Shown here piece after piece: positions 16,364 through 31,164 of a DNA stretch of 64,000 nt. The translations under genes and the position numbers were made by a program. The DNA is from Candidatus Latescibacterota bacterium. GTDB lineage: Bacteria; Latescibacterota; UBA2968; UBA8231. The stretch lies in NCBI GenBank assembly GCA_965206595.1, contig OZ242214.1:3168001-3232000 (forward strand). The letters run 5' to 3'. Every line of letters starts with the position of its first letter. Position 1 is the stretch's first letter. The notes below the pieces were generated by a model. That model saw only the letters and a list, made by a program, of their open reading frames with translations, was not told the origin of the DNA and did not search any database.

Positions 16364-16428
16364 TTGTAATTCGGCCGGTAAACAGGCTCACCGGCTTCCC
16401 ACACAGTGCCCTTGACGTCAACAGGACC

Positions 16429-17287
16429 TTAATCCCGCCCCGTTTCTGACAAGGTAGCAAGTGTTTCAAGGGACTGAAAACAAATAGATCTTCGCAATTT
16501 GTGAAGGGATTTTTCCTTTATTTGGCGAATGCGTTCTCTGGTAAGGCCCATCTTTTCCCCAATTTCCTGAAGTGTGTGAGGCTCCCCCCCTTCAAGTCCA
16601 AAGTAAAGTTTGATAATTTGGTAATCTCGATTGTTTAATTTATGAAAACTAAAATCTATCTGTCTCCGCGCAGATTCTCGTAAGGAGGAAGTGTCCGGCG
16701 CGGGATTAGTAATATCACTATAAAGATTGCCATTTAGGGAGTCAGCATTTCCCAAATTTTCTTCGAAATAACACATATCCCTAGAATTAATTAGTTCTCT
16801 AATTTCTGTTTCTGAAAATTTTAAATCCTTGGAAATCTCGGTAAGGTCTGATTCTTCGAAATCGTCAAAATCCATTGTAGGAAGGGCTTTCCGAACCTTC
16901 CGAAGGATTGCAACCTTATTTAGAGGCATCCGGACCGTATGTACATCCTCCTCAAGAGCTTTTAAAATCGATTGTCGGATCCACCATACGGCGTAGGTGA
17001 TAAATTTATTCCCCATATCTCCGTCAAACCGATCTGCAGCCGTTATCAAGCCCAAATTACCCGCACTAATCAGGTCCGACAAAGGTAGCCCGCAATTCTG
17101 GAATGGGATAGCAACATAAATCACGAACCGCAAATTCCCGTTAATTAGTTCATCCCGCGCCTGGAGATCCCCGCATTTAATTCGGGATGACAATTCCACC
17201 TCGCGTTCACGGGATAAAGGGGTTGAGCCCATAATGTCCTTAAAAAGGACCCGCAAAACGTTTTCTTCCCCATCCGGAATTTTTTTT
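16429..17287 (-). CDS. RNA polymerase sigma-70 factor (RpoD/RpoS-like regions 1.2-4); likely the C-terminal part of a fusion with 17145-18020
   Basis: PLSREREVEL (1.2), NLRFV...DLISAGNLGL...KFITYAVWWIRQSI (region 2), TLQEIGEKMGLTRERIRQI (4.2); the frame opens at the A8 run. Confidence 0.9.
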
Positions 17288-18020
17288 CAAAAATAGCTTT
17301 TTCAAACCAAGAATAAATCCTGTTATAGAATTTCCGATTACGTTCGCTGGAAGTTAGCTTGCTAAGCCATGAATTTAATATTCCATCGCAGTTAATTGGT
17401 TTATGATTAGCAACCATCCAGTTTGCACACTGTGATAGCGATATTTCCATCAAACTGTCTAGATCAATTGGGCTTGGATTCGGGAGTGAAATATCCCTGA
17501 TCAACGATGTGACGCGCTCAAAAACATCGCGAGAATTATCGAGTTTATTGGGCCGGCGCCCTACAACCGCCACACTCAAGCGTGTTCCAGCTCGAAAAAA
17601 TACAACAGTTGGAGGAGTTAGTCGCTTATCAATCTCGCGGGTAAATTCATCAAGTATCCCTCTCGGTGCATCAGGTCCCTTCAGTTCCACTGCGAGAAAA
17701 AGAAAGCTCCGATGTCGTCCGCCTTGATAATAGCCTGCCGACCTCCCCGACCCTTGGAGACAACTCGAGATTATTTGGTCATTAGTCATTTGGAAAACGA
17801 GCTTTACAGACTGGACATCTTCCCGGAAAGCACCTTCTGGTTCCGTATTGGGTCTAATTGCAGGAAATTTTTGGATGAAATCCTCTACACTGCCAGAGAG
17901 CTTAAAAGTTCGATCACTCTCGTATCCCAAAATCAAAAGAAGATCTTTAACAACTAAAGAAAGATCTCTGCCTTTTGAGGATGCTAAAGTAGATTGGATA
18001 TCTTCACGAATGCCGGACAT
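17145..18020 (-). CDS. Diverged paralog of the N-terminal ~250 aa of the adjacent type IIG RM enzyme
   Basis: RSFLFLAVELKG/RSFLFVAIELKG, EFTREIDKRL/EFTREINKRL, NRKFYNRIYSWF/NRRFYRELFDWF; similarity ends at ~17280. Confidence 0.85.
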   Translation of the reverse strand: MSGIREDIQSTLASSKGRDLSLVVKDLLLILGYESDRTFKLSGSVEDFIQKFPAIRPNTEPEGAFREDVQSVKLVFQMTNDQIISSCLQGSGRSAGYYQGGRHRSFLFLAVELKGPDAPRGILDEFTREIDKRLTPPTVVFFRAGTRLSVAVVGRRPNKLDNSRDVFERVTSLIRDISLPNPSPIDLDSLMEISLSQCANWMVANHKPINCDGILNSWLSKLTSSERNRKFYNRIYSWFEKAIFEKKFRMGKKTFCGSFLRTLWAQPLYPVNARWNCHPELNAGISRRGMN

Positions 18021-18094
18021 CCTGTAAAGAAAGATCTCTGCCTTTTGAGGATGCTAAAGTAGATTGGATATCTTCACGAATGCCGGACATCCTG
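17955..18094. repeat. Perfect 70-bp tandem duplication covering the start of the RM-NTD paralog
   Basis: 17955-18024 is identical to 18025-18094. Confidence 0.95.
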
Positions 18095-18197: not shown

Positions 18198-21100
18198 TCA
18201 TTTCTCAATTGCCTGGATCTCCTTTCTCGTCAGTCCGTAAAGGTTGTACACTAATTGGTCTATTTCGCCTTCCTCCTCCTGGGTGTTTGCCGCCGGGTCG
18301 CGAGCTTTTTTCTTCAGGATTAGATCCACCAATCGAGAAAAGGGCCGTTGCTTTTCCGCCGGGATTATCGGAATTGGGATATTTTCAACGGAGGCATTTA
18401 TCCATCGAGTCACACCCATCCCAGAATTCAGTGCCATGTTGTCCATAAACCATGTAATTAGTGTTGAATTGAGTAAAGCACAAAGATATTTGATCGATTT
18501 TCCCGTCATAATAAATGTCGTGTTCAAGCAAAACACCCCATCAATATCGTAGGCAAATCTACCCTTATCTGTGAGATCCATCCAGATCAATTTTTTCTTT
18601 TGGAAATCTTCGTAGTAATTAGCACCCCATCGCTGGAGAGCATACCATTCGTACCGGATTCCAGTTTCCGATCTATTTCGGGAACTTAGGGCTGCCTTGT
18701 GTGAAAATAAATGCTGATAAATCGCAGGATACTGTTTTTTGAACAGATCCTCCGCCTTTTTACTGCTACCCTTGATTGTTGAATCAGAATGCAAAGGGAA
18801 ATGCCAAGGGACATTGATTAGCCATAATCCAGCCCAATTCGCTCGATATCGCTGAATGTCCCGCCCACGCAGCACCGGCTTGATGATCTCTGCAGAGTTT
18901 GGGGATTGTGCAACCAGCGCCGATCTAGTCGCTTCGTCAATGATGAAGGCACCATTGCAACCCGTTGTGATTCCACGATTGCGTTCACCTTCCCAATTTT
19001 TTATCGGCGTTCCTTTCTTCTGCATCTTGCCCATTACCATCTGCTCGGTTCGTGACAGTATGCTCCAAGGCTTATCTCCCTCCGGCCTCGCTTGCCCCCA
19101 CAACTTTTCCTCAGGCGGGAAATTTTTGGTTTTCAATTTGTCCATATCAACAGCATCAACCGCCTTGGACCTCCTGGCATCGTTCCCTTTCCGCAGTAGC
19201 AGGACACAGGTGTCGACGATGGTGTTTTCAAAAACGTCCTTCCCCATTTCCAGTAGCCGCAACGGGCTGTGCCGATCTGCGAAATAACGGCGCAGGGGTT
19301 TTCCGTACTCAGCTTTCAACCAGCTGTTTGAGGTGATGTAGGCCAGCAGCCCCCCAGGGCGAAGCTGCCGGCAGCCGCTCTCGTAGAACAGCTGGTAGAT
19401 ATCTCCGGTTCGGGCGAAGGTATCGTAACCTGCGTCCTTGTAGAGCTTGCCTAATTTGCCTCCTTCCTTCTGCAACTGGATGTAAGGTGGATTGCCGATA
19501 ATCAGGTCAAACCCTTCCTCGACCCCGAACATGTACTTCGCGTCGAACCAGGTGCTGCTGTCGTTCTGGTCGTAAGGATCCCAATGGGCTATCTGGTCCG
19601 CAGCCCCGGGTGGGAGGCCGGATTTCTCCAATTGCTTGGAGAGCCGACTCCGCAATTTCTTGTCAACCTTGATGCACTTCAGCTTTTCCTGTCGAGTATT
19701 GGCGTGAAAATGTCGTTCCCGGTTTGTCTGGATGTCCCTCTCCACCCGGTTAACGGCATCTGTCTGGCCGAGGGTGAACTGGTCCGGCTTGTCCAGGCCC
19801 AGGAGTGTGTCGGCGGCGACGAAGCGGGTCTCGAGGTTGGGCAGCGGCTTGATGCCGTGGTTCTCCGCGGTTTCGTCCGTGCTCTGCTCGATAGCCAGGG
19901 TTATAAAGAAGCGCAACTTGGCGATCTGGCAGGCGATGGTCTGGATGTCCACGCCGTAGATGCTGTTCTGGATGAGATAGAGCTTACGCCCGAAATCGGA
20001 GTCACGGTACTTTTCGAACGTGTCACTGATTTCCTTGAGCTCGGCATCGCGTTTCTGCTGGTTCTGTACCTCGAAGGCTTCCTGGGCGCTCATTCCCGCA
20101 ATTTCCTTCTGGAAGTTTTCCCAGAGCGCGTTTTCCGGATCGAGGCGTCGCAATGCCAGGGTCAGCTTGTGCAGGACTGCCATTGGGAAGGCCCCGGAAC
20201 CGACTGCCGGATCGAGCACCTTTGTCTCCGCAATCGCCCGCACAATGTTTGCCGCTTCCTTCTCTTCAAACAGATCGTTTGCATCGTTGAAGGCGTCTTC
20301 GTAGTCCAGCAGGTAGCGCAGCCGTTCTTGCCAGTAATCCGCGTCGCCAACATTAGGCTGCACTTTTTCCTCAAACGCCGCGACCAAAGCCTCATCCACC
20401 ATGTAGTCCACCACGGCCCTGGGCGTGTAGTAGGAGCCGGTCTGCTTGCGGGCCGTCTCACGGGTCTCGGGGTTGTAGGCCGCCAGCAGATTCTCGAAGA
20501 CTTTGCCGAGCAGCTCGGGGTCGAGGGCGACCTCCTGCTCTATGGGGGTGTTTTCCTCCACCGTGAACTTGAAGCGGTTTAGCAGTGGAAACAGACCGCC
20601 GCCCTCGTCGAAGAACAGGGCGTCAGGGACGTCCAGCTCCTGCCACGCCTCACGGCGCGCTTGTGCCGCCCGGGGGCTGTCGCTTGGGTCCGGATCGCTG
20701 AACATGTCGATGCGTTTGCCCCCGGCGCTTCTTGACTCGTCATCGTCCAGGCAGTCGAACAGGCCGCCATTGATGAACGGCGTCTGTTTCATCAGGTCCT
20801 CGAAACGCTTCGTATCCCGAATGAGGGTTCGGTAGCGGAAACGTGAAAAGACCCGGTGGCTAGGCTCGGTCCGGGTGGTGAAACCACGCTTTCCCATCTC
20901 GGTGTTGAGGGTCGCGAAGAAGAGGTTCTGCAGGACGGCGCGGTAGTAGTCCGAGCCGCCGAAGTCGTTCAGCAGCTCTTTCATTTCGGCGCCGACGAAC
21001 CACTCCTCTCGGACCAGCCCCTTTTCCTTGATGAACCAGACGAACAGGATTCGAGTGATCAACCGGATGACCTGCTGCTCCATAGGCACGGTCGAGGGGA

Positions 21101-21845
21101 ACTGCGCCTCTTCCACCGCCCAGTTGAACCAATCGAATAGCTCGCGGTAGAACCGCCGGTTGAGTTCCTCTGTGTCCAGTGCATCCAGCCAGGCGGCAAG
21201 CATGCTGTCGAAGTTGGGTTGCTTGCGTTGCAAACCCATCCATTGCAGCCGCTTTTCCAGCGAAAGGTCCTCCAGAATATCGAGGTGTGCCCGGTGCGGG
21301 TTGGCGGTGTCGATTTCGCGTATCAGGAAAACGCGGCCTTGCACATCGCGGCTACGATCGCGCTTGTGCTCGCGGCGGTGGACGAATGCCACGGTGAGCA
21401 GGCCGGAGCCGGCCCGGAAAAGGACGACCGCAGGTGCAATTAACCGTTTGTTTATCTCACGGGTGAATTCGGCGTACTGGCCGCGCGGGTAGCGAACCCC
21501 TTTCAGTTCGATCGCTACAAAGAGAAAGCTGCGGATGTTTCCGCTGTTGAATTCGCCGGTGTCAAACAGGGAATGTTGCACCCCCGAAGCGATTTCGGCG
21601 TCAGTGATCTGAAAGAGGATGCAAGCGGATGCGACGTTGTCGCGGAACGCCTGCTCCGACACCGTGCCTGGCTTCGGGGCGGGGTACTCCTTGATGAACT
21701 CTTTGATGTGGTTCCCCAGCCGTGGGGGCTTGAGCTCGCTCCGGTAGCCTAGGGCGGCGAGCAAATCCTGCGCCGCTGTGAGGAAATCCCTCCCCGGCAT
21801 GGAGGCCAGGGTGGAGCTGATTTTGTCGCGGTCTTGTTCAGCCAT
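18198..21845 (-). CDS. Type IIG (Eco57I-like) restriction-modification enzyme, N6-adenine MTase with TaqI_C-like target recognition domain
   Basis: PFINGGLF, TGSYYTP, motif I DPAVGSGAF, motif IV IIGNPPY, LRGRDI, LLNS; 1215 aa. Confidence 0.92.
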   Translation of the reverse strand: MAEQDRDKISSTLASMPGRDFLTAAQDLLAALGYRSELKPPRLGNHIKEFIKEYPAPKPGTVSEQAFRDNVASACILFQITDAEIASGVQHSLFDTGEFNSGNIRSFLFVAIELKGVRYPRGQYAEFTREINKRLIAPAVVLFRAGSGLLTVAFVHRREHKRDRSRDVQGRVFLIREIDTANPHRAHLDILEDLSLEKRLQWMGLQRKQPNFDSMLAAWLDALDTEELNRRFYRELFDWFNWAVEEAQFPSTVPMEQQVIRLITRILFVWFIKEKGLVREEWFVGAEMKELLNDFGGSDYYRAVLQNLFFATLNTEMGKRGFTTRTEPSHRVFSRFRYRTLIRDTKRFEDLMKQTPFINGGLFDCLDDDESRSAGGKRIDMFSDPDPSDSPRAAQARREAWQELDVPDALFFDEGGGLFPLLNRFKFTVEENTPIEQEVALDPELLGKVFENLLAAYNPETRETARKQTGSYYTPRAVVDYMVDEALVAAFEEKVQPNVGDADYWQERLRYLLDYEDAFNDANDLFEEKEAANIVRAIAETKVLDPAVGSGAFPMAVLHKLTLALRRLDPENALWENFQKEIAGMSAQEAFEVQNQQKRDAELKEISDTFEKYRDSDFGRKLYLIQNSIYGVDIQTIACQIAKLRFFITLAIEQSTDETAENHGIKPLPNLETRFVAADTLLGLDKPDQFTLGQTDAVNRVERDIQTNRERHFHANTRQEKLKCIKVDKKLRSRLSKQLEKSGLPPGAADQIAHWDPYDQNDSSTWFDAKYMFGVEEGFDLIIGNPPYIQLQKEGGKLGKLYKDAGYDTFARTGDIYQLFYESGCRQLRPGGLLAYITSNSWLKAEYGKPLRRYFADRHSPLRLLEMGKDVFENTIVDTCVLLLRKGNDARRSKAVDAVDMDKLKTKNFPPEEKLWGQARPEGDKPWSILSRTEQMVMGKMQKKGTPIKNWEGERNRGITTGCNGAFIIDEATRSALVAQSPNSAEIIKPVLRGRDIQRYRANWAGLWLINVPWHFPLHSDSTIKGSSKKAEDLFKKQYPAIYQHLFSHKAALSSRNRSETGIRYEWYALQRWGANYYEDFQKKKLIWMDLTDKGRFAYDIDGVFCLNTTFIMTGKSIKYLCALLNSTLITWFMDNMALNSGMGVTRWINASVENIPIPIIPAEKQRPFSRLVDLILKKKARDPAANTQEEEGEIDQLVYNLYGLTRKEIQAIEK

Positions 21846-21849
21846 GGGG

Positions 21850-22149
21850 TCAGGGCGTGAGGGTCAGTGTCGAAGCCGGGCGGATGCCATCGGTGAGCCT
21901 ATTCCGCTCGCCAGCCAGTCTGCGAAAGTCACACTCCACCTGGATACCGTGCCAGAACTCGTCCGATTGGCCGAAGAAGGCGCCGAAACGAATGGACATG
22001 GCGGGTGTGATCGACCGCTTCGCGTGAACGATTTCGTTGATCGCACGCGGGGGCACGCCGATGGCACGGGCCATAGCGTTCTGCGAGATCCCCATGGGCT
22101 CCAGGTACTCCTTCAGAAGAATCTCGCCGGGCGTAATCGGACTTTCCAT
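21850..22149 (-). CDS. higA: HigA-family antitoxin
   Basis: [32 protein letters not shown]. Confidence 0.88.
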
Positions 22150-22187
22150 TTCAATAATACCCCTATGACGTTACAAGGTTCTGACAT

Positions 22188-22466
22188 CTAATGATAGTCC
22201 ACGATCGCCACTTGGTCAGGTCCCTCATCGGTCCACCGAAAGACGATGCGCCACTGGGCGTTGATCCGAATGGAGTGAAAGCCCGCCAAGTTGCCCCGAA
22301 GTACTTCCAGACGGTTGCCCGGCGGAACGGCGAGGTCGCTGAGCCTACTCGCCTGATTAATCTGAATGAGTTTTCTCAACGCCACTCGCGCTATTGCCGC
22401 CAAGCGGCGGTTGCTCCCAGTCTGGAACAGCTGCTCTGTGTCCCGATTTGCGAAGGATTGGATCAA
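22188..22466 (-). CDS. higB: HigB-like (RelE/ParE) toxin
   Basis: [31 protein letters not shown]; toxin-first gene order. Confidence 0.9.
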
Positions 22467-26515: not shown

Positions 26516-26848
26516 ATGCCATCGCAATTGGGAAAGACAATCCGTTCGAGGCGCCAAGAGATCAACCTCTCTCTTCGCGGACTTGCTCGCGCCATCGGGA
26601 AATCCCCCTCCTTCATCGTGGAAATCGAACGGAGCGAGCGCCCACCTGCGGTATCAGAGGATACCCTTCGCGAAATCGCGAACGCCATACAAGTAGAAGC
26701 AGATCTCCTGATTGTGCTGGCGGGGAAGACACCCACCGACGTCACCCCGAAGAGCGTGGAAGAGGTGGAGCTCTACCGTATGGTTCGTGGCCTCCAGGCA
26801 GATGAGCAAGAACAGGTCAAGAGGTATATCCGTAGTCGGAGAAAATGA
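26516..26848 (+). CDS. XRE-family HTH regulator
   Basis: LGKTIRSRR...SLRGLARAIGKSPSFIVEIE; RBS AGGAG. Confidence 0.85.
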   Translation: MPSQLGKTIRSRRQEINLSLRGLARAIGKSPSFIVEIERSERPPAVSEDTLREIANAIQVEADLLIVLAGKTPTDVTPKSVEEVELYRMVRGLQADEQEQVKRYIRSRRK

Positions 26849-26849
26849 A

Positions 26850-27908
26850 ATGAATGATGTCAACCTCAACCCTGCTGAAGAATTGACCGGTTTGACCCTC
26901 GATGGAGGTTGGCGAGTAATCGAGAAGTGCAGAAAGTCTGGGACTCAAACTGGTGGTTTCTTCAGTGTAGGGTATATAGTTGCGCGAGATGGACAGAAGG
27001 CCTACCTAAAGGCACTCGACTTCTATTCAAGTCTCGTGCTGGCCAGTGACCCTGCGCGTAGCCTGCAGCCCCTGATCGAAGCATTCAACCGGGAGCGAGA
27101 TCTCCTTGCCAAGTGCAGAAACCACAGGCTAACCCGAGTTATTGTGGCTCTGGATGATGGAGCAATCAGACCAAGTGGTACGAGCTTCCTTTATCCAGTG
27201 CAATACATCGTCTTTGAGCTCGCGGACGGTGACGTCCGAAACCAGATCACAACAGCTGACCGTCTGGACCTCGCTTGGGCGCTACGCGCATTGCACCAGA
27301 TTGCGGTCGGCTTGCAGCAACTACACGGCATCGGTGTTGCTCACCAGGACACAAAACCTTCAAATGTCTTGCTTTTCCAGGGAGGTGTGGTATCCAAGTT
27401 GGCGGATGTAGGAAGCGCCTCTGCCCGAGGAGAGACCCGGCCGTTTGGGGACCGAGACTATCTGGGTGATCCTACGTACGCTCCCCCTGAGTTGCGGTAC
27501 GGGGCACCGCCTGCAGATTGGGGACCTAGAAGCATGGGGTGTGATGTATACCACCTCGGAAGTATGATCGTCTGGATGTTCACCATGACTGCGATGACTC
27601 AGATCCTTCTCATGAGTTTGTCCCAGGACATGCACCCAGAAGCTTGGGAAAGTACCTACGATGAGGTGCTTCCTTATCTGAGGTCGGAGTATGAGGACAT
27701 TCTCGAATACTTGTACCCCGAGTTTCCCGAAGGTTTCCAGGACGATCTCACCGATATGGTGCGCCAGTTATGTGATCCTGACCCAGCTCGGAGAGGCCAT
27801 CCTCGAAGTCATCAGGAGATAGGGTCGCCTTACCGCTTGGAGAGGTATATTTCTAAGCTAGACCGACTAGCCAAGACAGCTGAATTCCGTCTCGTTGGTG
27901 AGATATAG
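26850..27908 (+). CDS. Ser/Thr (Hanks-type) protein kinase
   Basis: G-loop TGGFFSVGY, AYLK, HQDTKPSN, LADVG, YAPPE, DVYHLG. Confidence 0.88.
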   Translation: MNDVNLNPAEELTGLTLDGGWRVIEKCRKSGTQTGGFFSVGYIVARDGQKAYLKALDFYSSLVLASDPARSLQPLIEAFNRERDLLAKCRNHRLTRVIVALDDGAIRPSGTSFLYPVQYIVFELADGDVRNQITTADRLDLAWALRALHQIAVGLQQLHGIGVAHQDTKPSNVLLFQGGVVSKLADVGSASARGETRPFGDRDYLGDPTYAPPELRYGAPPADWGPRSMGCDVYHLGSMIVWMFTMTAMTQILLMSLSQDMHPEAWESTYDEVLPYLRSEYEDILEYLYPEFPEGFQDDLTDMVRQLCDPDPARRGHPRSHQEIGSPYRLERYISKLDRLAKTAEFRLVGEI

Positions 27909-27909
27909 T

Positions 27910-29475
27910 ATGCCTCTCGGGTTGAGCGACAATAACCGCAGAGTAATTCCCACATGGAGGCCGAGCACTGTTTCAATGAAATTCGGGGAATCAGCACCTG
28001 TTTCCGGTTTGGAGGCAAGAGGCTTTCCAAGCGATGAATCATTAAGGGAAGCCAAACAGGACTGGATCGACAGTCCCACAGTCCCTTTCGCAGCTGGTCT
28101 GGTCATGGCGGCGCTATGCGCGGGGAAGGAAAATGAGGCATCGGATGCCGCAAAGTTACTTCTGGAGACAAAAGAGAGAGTTTCACCTCTGCTCCTCAGA
28201 TGTGCTCATCGGATTCTCGGCTCTGGTGAACCGGAAGCGCAGAGTTCAGAGGAGATCCCCAGTGCGCTCAGAGACTATCGTAGACGTCTGCGAGTTGGCC
28301 CAAACAATCCGTTCATATGGCTGGATCTTGCTCTAGAGTACAGCACCATTGGTAAGTTAAAGAGTGCGGAGAGGGCGATCGTTGTAGCTACCTCTTTGGC
28401 CGGCAGCAACCGTATCGTACTTCGCTCGGCCAGCAGATTTTTTCTCCACTGCGGGCGTAATGACCGGGCTCATTCTCTTCTGGTTACGGCGAAGGAACTC
28501 CAGAACGATCCTTGGCTACTATCCGCAGAAATTGCCGTTGGGGAACTAATGGGACAAACTTCCAGATATATTCGAATAGGGAGAGAAATGCTTGCTTCAG
28601 GGAAGCACTCCCCAAGGCAGCTTTCCGAACTGGCAAGCGCAATCGGGACATTGGAGCTTTCAGCTGGGAAAATCCGGCACTCCAAGCGACTCCTGACGGG
28701 ATCCCTCAAGGATCCTACCGATAACTCAGTTGCCCAGGCAATTTGGGCCCAAAGTGTTACCCCAGAATTAGGGCTGGGTCCGTCTTACTCTTCGGTACCT
28801 TACTCGTTCGAGGCTAGAGCATGGGACAACGCCATTGAAGGCAAATGGGAGGTAGCAATGACAGCCGCCCGAGATTGGCAAAATTACGAGCCAACCTCTG
28901 GACGTGCAGCAGTGTTCGGCTCTTGGATGGCAGCTGCAATGATCCGAGACTACGACGACGCCATCAAGATAGCAAAGCAGGGCCTTCTCGCCGATCCCAA
29001 AAAAATCGTTCTCGCAAACAACCTTGCCTTCGCGCTCGCCTGCAGCGGCCAACTAGACGCAGCAAGGAGGGTCCTTCAGAAGTGGCCGATTGCGAACCTG
29101 GCCGAAGAGCACAAGCCAATTATCCTCGCCACGAACGGCTTGTTAGCCTTTCGAGAAGGAGACAGGAACTCCGGAAGGGAGCTCTATCGTAGAGCCCGGG
29201 AGCTTGCGATCAATCAAAAGGAAAGAGGCAAATCAGTTTGGGCCGGACTTTATCATGCTAGAGAGGAGTACAGGATAGGCAACCATTTCGACGCAGATGG
29301 TCTAGTGAGGCGTGCCATCGGCGGAATTCCAAAAATACCTAAGAAGGACATCCCTGTCACAATTCGAATACTCGGGGAGGTCCTTGCTGTTGGGGGACGC
29401 GATGTGTCTGAAGTAATGCCGAAAAAAAAGAATCGTGGCCAAAGATTCGACACAATCAGAGAGAAATTCCCCTAA
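27910..29475 (+). CDS. TPR-repeat protein
   Basis: PNNPFIWLDLALEY, LANNLAFALA, ATNGLLAFREG helical repeats. Confidence 0.75.
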   Translation: MPLGLSDNNRRVIPTWRPSTVSMKFGESAPVSGLEARGFPSDESLREAKQDWIDSPTVPFAAGLVMAALCAGKENEASDAAKLLLETKERVSPLLLRCAHRILGSGEPEAQSSEEIPSALRDYRRRLRVGPNNPFIWLDLALEYSTIGKLKSAERAIVVATSLAGSNRIVLRSASRFFLHCGRNDRAHSLLVTAKELQNDPWLLSAEIAVGELMGQTSRYIRIGREMLASGKHSPRQLSELASAIGTLELSAGKIRHSKRLLTGSLKDPTDNSVAQAIWAQSVTPELGLGPSYSSVPYSFEARAWDNAIEGKWEVAMTAARDWQNYEPTSGRAAVFGSWMAAAMIRDYDDAIKIAKQGLLADPKKIVLANNLAFALACSGQLDAARRVLQKWPIANLAEEHKPIILATNGLLAFREGDRNSGRELYRRARELAINQKERGKSVWAGLYHAREEYRIGNHFDADGLVRRAIGGIPKIPKKDIPVTIRILGEVLAVGGRDVSEVMPKKKNRGQRFDTIREKFP

Positions 29476-29892: not shown

Positions 29893-31164
29893 CTACTTGA
29901 ACAGCTTGGGCCGCTTGATTTCGAGGTTGGCGCGATTAAGGGCCGGATCGAGAGGGGACATTCCCTCCAGCCTCGCGCGCAGAGCCAATGCTTCTTCGGA
30001 TTCTCCCTTACCCTCCCTGATCAAGCACCGGTATTCATCCAAGGCTTCTGTGAAGGTATTCCCGGGCGGGCGTTCGCCTACGCGCATAACCACGGAAAGA
30101 ACGTCCCCCGCCTCGGCCCCATAGGTCGCCCCACGCGGTGCCCCGGCGACAATGCGGTCTCCATCCGGGTACAGTTCCACAATGCTCTTCGGCTCGTCCG
30201 TGGTCAGCACCTGAGGACTGTGAGTGGATACGATATACTGCGCATTCGGGAACGTCCGCCGCAGGTCGTCGAGGATGCGCTGCTGCCACCCCGGATGCAG
30301 GTGCAGTTCCACCTCGTCGATCAGGACCACGGCCTCTGATGCAAGCGGGTCCTTCAGGTGCGGGTTACCCTGCGCCATCCGTCGCGCCAAGTCGGCCGCC
30401 AGCGCCAGCACGATGCGATAGCCCCCGCTCAGCTGGTCGAGGGAGAGCTTCTCTACCTGTTCTTGCCCTGATTTCCGGGACACCACGAAACGGGGCGGAT
30501 TCAACTCGGTGCGCGGATCGGACACTTCCGGCAGCATGGACGAGATCGCCTGGCGAACTGCGTCCAACTCCTTTAGCTGAAAATTGAAGTCGCGCCGCTC
30601 CTTCTGTTGCCGCAGTTCCTCGTCTTCCTTGGAATAGAACCAGGTGAAGAGCCCCTCGAAATCCGTGCGAGCGGAAAGCGCCCCCTCCAGGGCGGCTAAC
30701 CGGGGTACCCTGTGCTGAGAATTGCTCGGGGACAGTACTGATTGCGGCACACCTGCGACTGTGCGATCGGTACCATAAAAGGCGAAAATGGGCAAATCAT
30801 TCTGATCCGCATGGCTGATATCGACTAGCGCCTCCTCCACGGCACCCTGAAGAGCCAACCTCTCTTTCTCTTCTCGATCCGCATCTTTTCTATTTCCCTT
30901 CCACTCCGAAACGGTTCCCTCCACTGGGGCAAGCAAGACCCGCGGATCTCCCTTACCCTCGCGCCGATCCTCCTCGCAAAAATCAACGCCCGGTTCACAA
31001 GGGAACGATCGGAACAGGTCCCGCAACCCCACCGCGATCGCACTCAAAACACTCGTCTTGCCGTACCCATTGTCGCCGTGAAGCACGGTCAGCGACGGGT
31101 CGAGCTGCAGCTCGAGTTTCTCAAGCGCCCGATAGTTTTCAACCTTCACGAATTTCAGCTTCAC
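29893..31164 (-). CDS. AAA/ABC ATPase resembling Septu/retron PtuA
   Basis: GDNGYGKT, LSGG, VLIDEVELHLHPGWQ, STHSP. Confidence 0.85.
   Translation of the reverse strand: MKLKFVKVENYRALEKLELQLDPSLTVLHGDNGYGKTSVLSAIAVGLRDLFRSFPCEPGVDFCEEDRREGKGDPRVLLAPVEGTVSEWKGNRKDADREEKERLALQGAVEEALVDISHADQNDLPIFAFYGTDRTVAGVPQSVLSPSNSQHRVPRLAALEGALSARTDFEGLFTWFYSKEDEELRQQKERRDFNFQLKELDAVRQAISSMLPEVSDPRTELNPPRFVVSRKSGQEQVEKLSLDQLSGGYRIVLALAADLARRMAQGNPHLKDPLASEAVVLIDEVELHLHPGWQQRILDDLRRTFPNAQYIVSTHSPQVLTTDEPKSIVELYPDGDRIVAGAPRGATYGAEAGDVLSVVMRVGERPPGNTFTEALDEYRCLIREGKGESEEALALRARLEGMSPLDPALNRANLEIKRPKLFK

Follow-up and report, generated by a model that had tools for sequence, protein, structure and literature searches.

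The reading frames at the locus

The window analysed here is a stretch of 64,000 nucleotides from the genome of a Candidatus Latescibacterota bacterium (GenBank assembly GCA_965206595.1, contig OZ242214.1, positions 3,168,001 to 3,232,000 of the forward strand; coordinates given below are those of the window). Its minus strand carries, at 16429-18020, two overlapping open reading frames (ORFs), one for a paralogue of the N-terminal domain of a type IIG-like (IIG) protein, referred to here as the N-domain, and the other for a sigma-70 factor. Read along that strand, the genes are those for a PLD-SNF2 helicase, a higBA-like pair, the IIG protein and then the two ORFs (Table 1), in what the PADLOC matches C3a139, REase_MTase_IIG and PDC-M71 mark as a defence-island setting. 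The two ORFs almost certainly represent a broken member of a family of single-chain N-domain-sigma fusion proteins.

The upstream ORF (17145-18020) encodes 291 amino acids (aa), of which residues 5-248 align with residues 6-249 of the 1215-aa IIG protein (46% identity over 246 aa, E 1e-59), and it has no Pfam or PADLOC match of its own. A preliminary description of the locus, made from the sequence alone, had reported a likeness of about 250 aa to the N-terminus of the restriction enzyme, and this is borne out; the AVELKG motif is kept, as it claimed, and the similarity stops where it said, at WFEKAIFEKKF in the ORF and WFNWAVEEAQF in the IIG protein. Its coordinates, its sequence and the run of eight A residues (A8) at 17280-17287 are likewise correct. 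From that run a second frame, TGA-AAA-AAA-ATT-CCG-GAT, is open to 16429, one base back from the N-domain frame (the -1 frame). Its product matches Sigma70_r2 (50.2 bits) and Sigma70_r4 (62.8 bits), both above the Pfam cut-offs, and its residues 10-267 align with residues 120-379 of the SigA chain 7l7b_F (E 5e-47), the best match among solved SigA and RpoD chains. The region 1.2 and region 3 Pfam families are found in relatives, and the presence of regions 1.2, 2, 3 and 4 in order identifies a primary-like sigma-70 factor (groups 1-2), in keeping with the earlier account of a frame that opens at A8 and runs through regions 1.2 to 4. The motifs of regions 2 and 4.2 are conserved, and core binding and promoter initiation are predicted functions of the fused sigma.

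Because the alignment to SigA starts from residue 10, homology in region 1.2 begins upstream of ATG 17231, the first ATG of the sigma frame. The preliminary description saw no convincing ribosome-binding site for a separate sigma gene, which was too strong a statement, since possible sites read by eye stand 4 nt before ATG 17231 (AAGGA) and 10 nt before TTG 17256 (GGGGA). One added base unites the two frames into a protein of 530 aa, matching the fusion of about 530 aa that had been foreseen. The window retains 48 of the 53 sigma columns that are invariant in the family and 88 of the 96 columns invariant in 24 fusion proteins, all eight changes being conservative.

At the other end of the gene, a 70-bp duplication, which the preliminary description had overlooked, gives a second, out-of-frame copy of the start codon and of the 22 codons at the beginning of the gene, and a contig over its junction (17995-18054) is present in three sequencing runs. 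We note that the first copy opens a 28-codon ORF ending 14 nt past the true ATG, and that the contig depth of the 70-bp unit in run X1 is 57, as against 16-21 in the flanks (about threefold), which might point to a copy number above two; contig depth is no copy number, however, and no claim is made from it.

Table 1. Positions of the cassette genes and of the features of the fusion gene in the window.
Feature	Position	Strand	Remarks
PLD-SNF2 helicase-nuclease, 1074 aa	22479..25703	-	Pfam PLDc_2, SNF2-rel_dom, Helicase_C; PADLOC C3a139 'HKD+Snf2', 361 bits
higBA-like toxin-antitoxin pair, between helicase and IIG gene	21850..22466	-	HigA TIGR02607 90.5 bits, above cut-off; toxin match weak
Type IIG-like methyltransferase/specificity protein (P0002), 1215 aa	18198..21845	-	Pfam Eco57I, N6_Mtase, TaqI_C; PADLOC REase_MTase_IIG 410 bits
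Paralogous N-domain of the type IIG-like protein	21099..21845	-	
Perfect 70-bp tandem duplication, 2.0 copies	17955..18094	-	last 4 leader bases, ATG and 22 codons
N-domain coding part of the fusion gene, 248 codons	17277..18020	-	paralogue of the IIG N-terminal domain; distant DUF4391 relative
Break zone: A8 run (17280-17287), then TTCCGG	17274..17287	-	1 base short relative to in-frame relatives
Out-of-frame tail of the N-domain ORF, 43 codons and stop	17145..17276	-	overlies sigma regions 1.2-2
Sigma-70 frame, regions 1.2 to 4.2, 285 codons	16429..17286	-	region 2 ~16954-17148; region 4 ~16492-16644

A family of single-chain fusion proteins

A search with the N-domain recovered 10 proteins of 160-510 aa, with Sigma70 Pfams in four of the nine that were not the query, and 61 of 511-2000 aa, among which 25, all of 521-570 aa, carry Sigma70 Pfams and the other 36 are Eco57I-type enzymes of 786-1308 aa. 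In-frame homologues with both domains, whose absence the preliminary description had counted among the conditions that would refute its proposal, thus exist in the form of these 25 single chains. An alignment of 24 of them (P0028 was omitted, by no stated criterion) has a mean column identity of 72%, with a junction of the form ...WFEQAVSE[EK]K[FI]PEGEENNLRLYF...; the same is obtained from the window on read-through, where EKK-[I/F]-PDGEENVLRVLF agrees with the family consensus. All 16 relatives from the phylum are in frame at the junction between N-domain and sigma, which was read directly in 15 of them; the remaining one, G118, was judged to be in frame from its 574-aa open frame and the match coordinates. 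To judge from these sequence comparisons, the two ORFs are halves of one ancestral gene and the fusion is the ancestral state, with a product of about 530-540 aa in which the N-domain is joined directly to region 1.2, in place of region 1.1. The architecture is conserved and apparently undescribed.

Both halves have traceable histories within the phylum. In the fusion proteins the N-domains fall into a single clade (UFBoot/SH-aLRT 95/86), separate from those of the IIG proteins, which suggests that the N-domain was duplicated once within the phylum to give the fusion clade and is an old paralogue of the IIG N-terminal domain. The sigma parts, too, make up a single clade (SH-aLRT 97), whose sister is a free sigma of 286 aa from another Latescibacterota record (L002), and fall within a group of phylum-specific RpoD-like paralogues that includes four from the window's own genome (G000 in the phylum-wide counts). 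Identification of the fused sigma with the housekeeping sigma of the host was considered and rejected, as the tree groups it with these phylum-specific paralogues and not with the clade holding Bacteroidota sigA. Seven further short RpoD-like sigma genes were seen in G000 (L130-L134 and two more places), with open frames of 283-359 aa that are 40-49% identical to the fused sigma. The two N-domains of the window, in the fusion and in the IIG protein, stand on equal branches (0.74), and the broken gene therefore has no excess divergence over its intact neighbour.

The frame break

The junction of the window reads GAA AAA AAA TTC CGG ATG, and that of most relatives GAG GAG AAA TTC CCN GAA GGG. 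A run of A residues occurs there in only two of the 15 relatives read, both in frame; L090 has nine in frame (A9, giving EKKIPEG) and L092 has eight followed by G. The difference is accounted for by the loss of a single nucleotide, either A9 to A8 or CCC to CC, and either repair gives a junction seen in the family. The frame does change at A8, as the preliminary description stated, but the missing base need not be an A, since one C of TTC-CCG fits equally well.

The break is very probably real in the DNA. Each of three sequencing runs, all from one sample, yields a 1757-nt contig that covers 16400-17984 with no differences and no gaps, at word depths of 15.9, 12.4 and 27.1, and perfect k-mer contigs at a depth of 12-27 make a homopolymer miscall unlikely. 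A fourth run, from another sample, gave two exact fragments, in neither of which the junction is covered. The inspection of reads across the run that the preliminary description had proposed is answered in part by these contigs: they contain a single run length, A8, in support of the break, and are of a kind in which minority lengths would not show.

A slippery heptamer, A-AAA-AAA (GA-A-AAA-AAA-T), coincides exactly with the frame change and is in the zero frame, as in -1 frameshift or slippage sites of the dnaX type. Unlike those sites, the run in the window is not conserved in relatives, all 16 of which are in frame, and no structure follows it, as the 80 nt after A8 fold no better than shuffled sequences (z -0.22; 81 of 200 shuffles fold equally well). 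With neither a conserved slippery run nor a downstream structure, the break would be a recent mutation in the window lineage and not a conserved recoding signal, and a programmed switch is unlikely; slippage on A8 would supply at most a small share of full-length protein. The gene in the window is probably either inactive or cut in two, giving an N-domain-only product and perhaps a sigma with a start of its own. Two relatives also have damaged copies, with an in-frame stop in region 2 arising by substitution in G141, where the helicase is split by 1.3 kb as well, and a frame lost in region 3 in G058.

The cassette in related genomes

N-domain matches (E<=1e-10) occur in 37 of 168 genomes of the window's phylum, and 17 of the 168, G000 included, have a short fusion-type frame. 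The 20 kb around the genes of all 16 relatives were mapped with the window proteins (L001 and L117, both from genome G058, are the same stretch). A scan of genome contigs gave mostly ordinary sigma genes, the fusion being present in L001 only and the IIG cassette in L010 only among 80 loci. The adjacency to a restriction-modification gene and a PLD-helicase gene reported for the window recurs in the relatives, whose 16 loci all lie beside a type IIG-like gene and a PLD-SNF2 helicase. The helicase shares the strand of the fusion gene and lies upstream of it in 16 of 16, with a gap between the helicase and fusion matches of at most 14 nt in 11 and of 0.7-2.1 kb in the other five. That spacer holds a higBA-like module about 80% identical in amino acid sequence to the window's in L118, L119 and L128, and a partial one in L116 and L120; accessory genes seem to gather in the position behind the helicase. 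The IIG gene lies downstream of the fusion in 14 of the 16, directly or past inserts, identified as a Schlafen/AlbA_2 gene and a ParA-like gene (L114, L117); in the remaining cases it is degraded (L114) or off the contig end (L128).

Twenty further IIG loci lack an intact fusion gene, and the helicase is upstream in 15 of these, with none within 20 kb in the other five. A Poribacteria record (L010) has Schlafen, ParA, helicase and IIG genes and no fusion gene. We conclude that the fusion gene is an optional, often-lost third component of a mobile restriction-type cassette made up of a helicase-nuclease and a IIG-like methyltransferase. No N-domain match was obtained by tblastn in 72,556 plasmid records or 50,697 phage records.

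Several features of these loci were recorded alongside. A partial, inverted C-terminus of the IIG gene (residues ~696-955) lies next to a tyrosine integrase gene just past the IIG gene in L117, L118, L119, L121, L136, L137 and L149, and looks like a specificity-switching inversion module; neither an integrase nor an inverted IIG copy was found in the window between 8000 and 34000. The spacer of about 170 nt between the fusion and IIG genes is 83-93% conserved in L113, L115, L118, L119, L120, L124 and L126, is present also in L116, and carries a TATAAT box, imperfect in two of the seven loci, some 13 nt ahead of the ribosome-binding site of the IIG gene. L116 apart, the spacer is confined to loci in which the IIG gene comes directly behind the fusion gene; it occurs only next to the 3' end of the fusion gene, may be co-inherited with it and was given no weight. 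A scan for consensus promoters found three promoter-like sites where 3.5 were expected and two terminator-like sites where 2.4 were expected, and a scan for TGnTAnAAT near the starts of cassette genes found no shared site, its only two matches being in L122 and L123, some 210 nt ahead of the IIG start. Beside the helicase, the window has a Ser/Thr kinase and TPR pair (26712-29475, plus strand; PADLOC PDC-M71A/B, 380 and 400 bits), and a pair 37-47% identical to it sits within the cassette of G092 (L151, 11118-13524), between helicase and IIG genes. ATPase genes of the AAA_15/AAA_21 type recur near PLD-SNF2 cassettes of all three kinds (window 29893-31164, minus strand; L167, 15136-16443; L160, 3474-4664).

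A second fusion in cyanobacteria

Comparison of the family profile with 1.84 billion representative sequences led to P0084, in which the N-domain (hhalign probability 99.4, E 3e-21) is followed by sigma regions 1.2-4 and then by an AAA_22 region. The relatives of P0084 (P0088, P0219-P0271) are proteins of about 940-2450 aa from Microcoleus and Oscillatoriales, annotated as 'sigma-70 family RNA polymerase sigma factor'. In all four metagenome loci that show the upstream side, the cyanobacterial fusion starts where the ORF of a PLD-SNF2 helicase ends, this helicase being 37-45% identical to the window's, and no IIG gene is visible in those contigs. A UvdE gene follows the fusion in two loci of the L155-L160 set.

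A quick tree with DUF4391 as its root places the cyanobacterial N-domains within the IIG N-domains of other bacteria (SH-aLRT 96-99), apart from the Latescibacterota clade, and the sigma part is RpoD-like and cyanobacterial (NF005643, 456 bits). Since both halves are lineage-specific, the N-domain-sigma fusion has at least two independent origins. Both fusions place the N-domain straight onto region 1.2, where primary sigmas carry region 1.1.

Nature of the N-domain

The preliminary description noted that type IIG N-termini normally carry the PD-(D/E)xK nuclease fold; a working nuclease of this kind in the N-domain is not supported. An invariant (D/E)xK motif is absent from the family as a whole: the ExK motif has K to R in three and E to D in one of 24 fusion proteins, and among N-domains K to W in three and K to R in one of 17 fusion copies, and E to G or V in two of 14 IIG copies, so that it varies in both paralogues. 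The motif is AVELK in the N-domain of the window and AIALR in its cyanobacterial form. The AF2 model of the N-domain is confident (pLDDT 83, pTM 0.81) but had no Foldseek match in the PDB at E<=0.001, and a hidden Markov model of 31 N-domains had no match among PDB sequences at E<=1. VIA-align gave DrdV (Z 4.6), Hjc (4.0) and BpuSI (3.9), within a range of 3.6-4.6 for nucleases including the BspD6I small subunit, below unrelated top rows at Z 5.4; Atlas clusters of BpuSI_N and HSDR_N at 0.88-0.90 are leads only.

The nearest named family is DUF4391 (PF14335), which 24 of 31 N-domains match at E<=1 (best 6e-05); a related IIG N-terminus scores 24.5 bits and a cyanobacterial N-domain 18.1 bits against a cut-off of 29.9. 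The N-domain is thus a distant relative of DUF4391, putatively restriction-endonuclease-like, rather than a member of it. Of 41 related genomes, 3 yielded true DUF4391 genes (232-240 bits), which in all three loci stand directly after an SNF2 helicase that is 38-39% identical to the window's over about 1080 aa. The N-domain shares with these genes of type III-like restriction-modification operons a sub-threshold relationship and the same slot after a homologous helicase, which the fusion occupies within 14 nt in 11 of 16 loci; in the window the IIG and higBA genes stand between. The DUF4391 proteins differ in being free-standing (268-326 aa), with neither a sigma nor a IIG fusion. After DUF4391 come an N6_N4 methylase (L167, L168), a ResIII/RE_endonuc protein (L167) and a Schlafen/AlbA_2 protein (L169). 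To judge by its neighbours, the N-domain has the helicase as its constant partner, and not the restriction-modification enzyme, a point that the preliminary description had missed. A predicted complex of the IIG N-domain and the fusion N-domain scored 0.01 against a mark of 0.32, which speaks neither for nor against binding.

Relation to described systems

No fusion of a restriction-modification domain to a sigma factor was found in the literature searched, supplements, which may list such architectures, not being covered. The preliminary description knew of no architecture like this one, and to that extent it stands, but a sigma-70 anti-phage protein with a long N-terminal extension has already been named. 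This is MzaA (NCBIfam NF041931; PADLOC PDLC02203), which is defence-associated and in which the C-terminal ~280 aa form a full sigma-70 module. The sigma part of the window scores 191 bits with NF041931, and P0012 214 bits, over profile positions ~430-715 only and far below the cut-off of 800 bits; the scores with the PADLOC MzaA models are 109-129 bits. The N-domain of the window, in contrast, has no PADLOC match, and the partner genes differ. In PMC11551731, mza is a five-gene system; no paper on MzaA function was found in the literature searched, and neither 'mza' nor 'sigma' occurs in the accessible text of the PADLOC 2022 paper. The only sigma-related mention in the accessible portion of PMC12839542 is of a sigma-HTH-like domain in BrxL.

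Cj0031-like systems offer a parallel for the remainder of the cassette. Milman et al. 2023 (PMC9881135, Table 3) list Cj0031-like type II/IIG restriction-modification genes paired with coding sequences for PLD-SNF helicases and programmed inversions. The cassettes resemble these in combining an Eco57I-family gene with a PLD/SNF helicase gene, and in the inverted partial IIG C-termini beside an integrase in relatives. They differ in the sigma fusion, which that part of the paper does not mention, and in the window also in lacking an integrase or inverted copy (8000-34000). When SigA/RpoD and RpoS are taken for comparison, regions 1.2-4.2 align end to end and the region 2 and 4.2 motifs are present, the differences being that region 1.1 is replaced by a 250-aa restriction-modification-derived domain, that the gene is inside a restriction-type cassette and that the window copy is broken.

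Interpretation

The helicase is the one constant neighbour of free DUF4391 proteins and of N-domain-IIG, N-domain-sigma and N-domain-sigma-AAA_22 proteins, and therefore the N-domain may be the coupling part, a module that would attach partner proteins to the PLD-SNF2 motor-nuclease; we give this role an even chance. In the IIG protein its payload would be the methyltransferase/specificity unit, and in the fusion protein a sigma binding RNA polymerase core and promoter DNA. The suggestion that the sigma is a payload coupling the system to RNA polymerase and promoters, rather than a plain regulator or a bait, is tentative, and we would sooner bet against it than for it. Through the fusion, the helicase-nuclease would then be tied to transcription complexes, or the cassette would be able to read promoters of its own. 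Region 1.1 of primary sigmas sits in the DNA channel of the holoenzyme, and a domain replacing it would therefore face downstream DNA. A further step, that the fusions of both lineages are the RNA-polymerase-facing subunit of a helicase-nuclease immune system, placing the nuclease at transcription complexes or promoters of incoming DNA or serving as a primary-sigma bait, is rather unlikely; were it so, restriction would be coupled to transcription, and not to methylation state alone. Taken as a whole, the explanation that we favour, with some reservation, is that of one gene broken by a single-base loss, descended from an in-frame fusion that was an optional component of the cassette and may have had a helicase-coupling role. 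Of the interpretation in the preliminary description, the architecture and the linkage hold good, and the A8 switch and the nuclease role are wrong or unproven.

A number of observations weigh against this explanation. Gene order is the whole basis of the proposed coupling, and a plain regulatory sigma would account just as well for the Latescibacterota data. Cassettes can do without the fusion gene, which 15 of them lack; remnants occur in 4 of the 20 IIG loci (N-domain pieces of at most 85 aa in L135, L149 and L150, and a sigma piece in L140), and 3 of 17 carrier genomes (G000, G141 and G058) have a broken copy. The fold matches of the N-domain to nucleases are weak, the N-domain of the window has no DUF4391 match, and no member of the family reaches the Pfam cut-off. 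The three runs come from one sample, probably that from which the assembly was made, and length variants in the minority would not be visible in contigs. The order of the genes in the window (helicase, higBA, IIG, fusion) departs from that in relatives, and its base composition is discordant: GC content in 400-nt windows is 41-45% from 16400 to ~18800, that is, over the fusion gene (42.8%) and the last 600 nt of the IIG gene, as against 55-59% for the remaining cassette (whole IIG gene 55%, helicase 59%) and 51-56% for the fusion genes of relatives. This low GC content, set against relatives and cassette, indicates that the fusion copy in the window was probably acquired by recombination, from a donor outside the genomes searched. 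We note that this low-GC block, which stands in a genome of about 61-70% GC, takes in the 3' specificity end of the IIG gene and suggests that a segment with the target-recognition part was swapped in.

Among other accounts of what the fusion does, one makes it an ordinary alternative sigma specific to the cassette, by which expression of the helicase, IIG and accessory genes would be driven or timed, as by the C proteins of type II restriction-modification systems, with the N-domain as an anti-sigma-like sensor of the IIG protein or helicase. The complete sigma part, its place among phylum-specific RpoD-like paralogues away from the Bacteroidota sigA clade, the optional nature of the gene, as would befit a regulator, and the conserved ~170-nt spacer with a TATAAT box before the IIG start in seven loci all agree with it. 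The spacer, however, stands only beside the fusion 3' end and may have been co-inherited, its TATAAT is imperfect in two of seven, and no promoter motif is shared; the cyanobacterial module moreover heads AAA_22 proteins of 940-2450 aa, an odd form for a free initiation factor, and these giant forms tell mildly against a plain free regulator, which we consider fairly unlikely. A bait or decoy (the preliminary description had suggested a decoy or guard for anti-restriction proteins) would be a primary-like sigma that mimics the main sigma of the host, catches phage anti-sigma or sigma-appropriating proteins and signals through the N-domain to the helicase-nuclease. The recruitment, in each of two independent fusions, of a primary-like sigma native to the lineage would suit such a function, as would the defence-island setting and the replacement of the ExK lysine in 3 of 24 and 4 of 17 fusion proteins, as for a non-catalytic signalling copy. 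Yet no phage partner is known, the Latescibacterota sigma is not closest to the likely housekeeping clade, and nothing favours a bait over the other readings; we regard it as improbable.

The remaining accounts concern the break itself. An intact fusion gene whose homopolymer was miscalled in sequencing or assembly is improbable too: the break does lie in a run-rich stretch (A8, TT, CC, GG), the assembly is a single 7.05-Mb contig, which suggests long reads, and the G058 assembly is also frame-broken in this gene, but the k-mer contigs of three runs match the window without a difference and the lesion of the G141 copy is a substitution, hence no homopolymer error. Reversible or programmed expression, in which A8 and perhaps the 70-bp duplication toggle between an N-domain-only product and the full fusion by -1 frameshifting, transcriptional slippage or phase variation, gains something from the heptamer in the right frame, from the -1 shift giving EKKIPDG, a junction of the type found in natural relatives, from the lack of any other lesion or of excess divergence (the N-domain branch of 0.74 equals that of the intact IIG N-domain), and from the reversible kinds to which both lesions belong and the existence of free-standing DUF4391 proteins. 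Against this use of the A8 run as an expression switch, which the preliminary description had proposed, stand the occurrence of an A run in 2 of 15 relatives, both in frame, the absence of a stimulatory fold (z -0.22, 81 of 200 shuffles), the possibility that the break is in CC, and the one run length in the contigs of the three runs, though minorities are invisible there. We therefore hold such a switch to be the least probable of these alternatives, and retain the single-base loss in an ancestral fusion gene as the better account of the locus.

Significance

Since the copy in the window is broken, it matters as a pointer to the family and not for any activity of its own; the intact relatives (e.g. 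L115, L119 and L123) are three-gene cassettes. For DUF4391, on which there is essentially no literature, its name being found in only three papers, the comparison provides a first handle, as the family seems to accompany PLD-SNF2 helicases constantly. The usual picture of a sigma factor is that of a free initiation factor. Here a complete primary-like sigma is fused to a restriction-derived domain, which suggests that anti-phage DNA surveillance and RNA polymerase are directly linked, and support for such a link comes from the conservation of the fusion in one helicase-nuclease cassette together with its second, independent origin in cyanobacteria.

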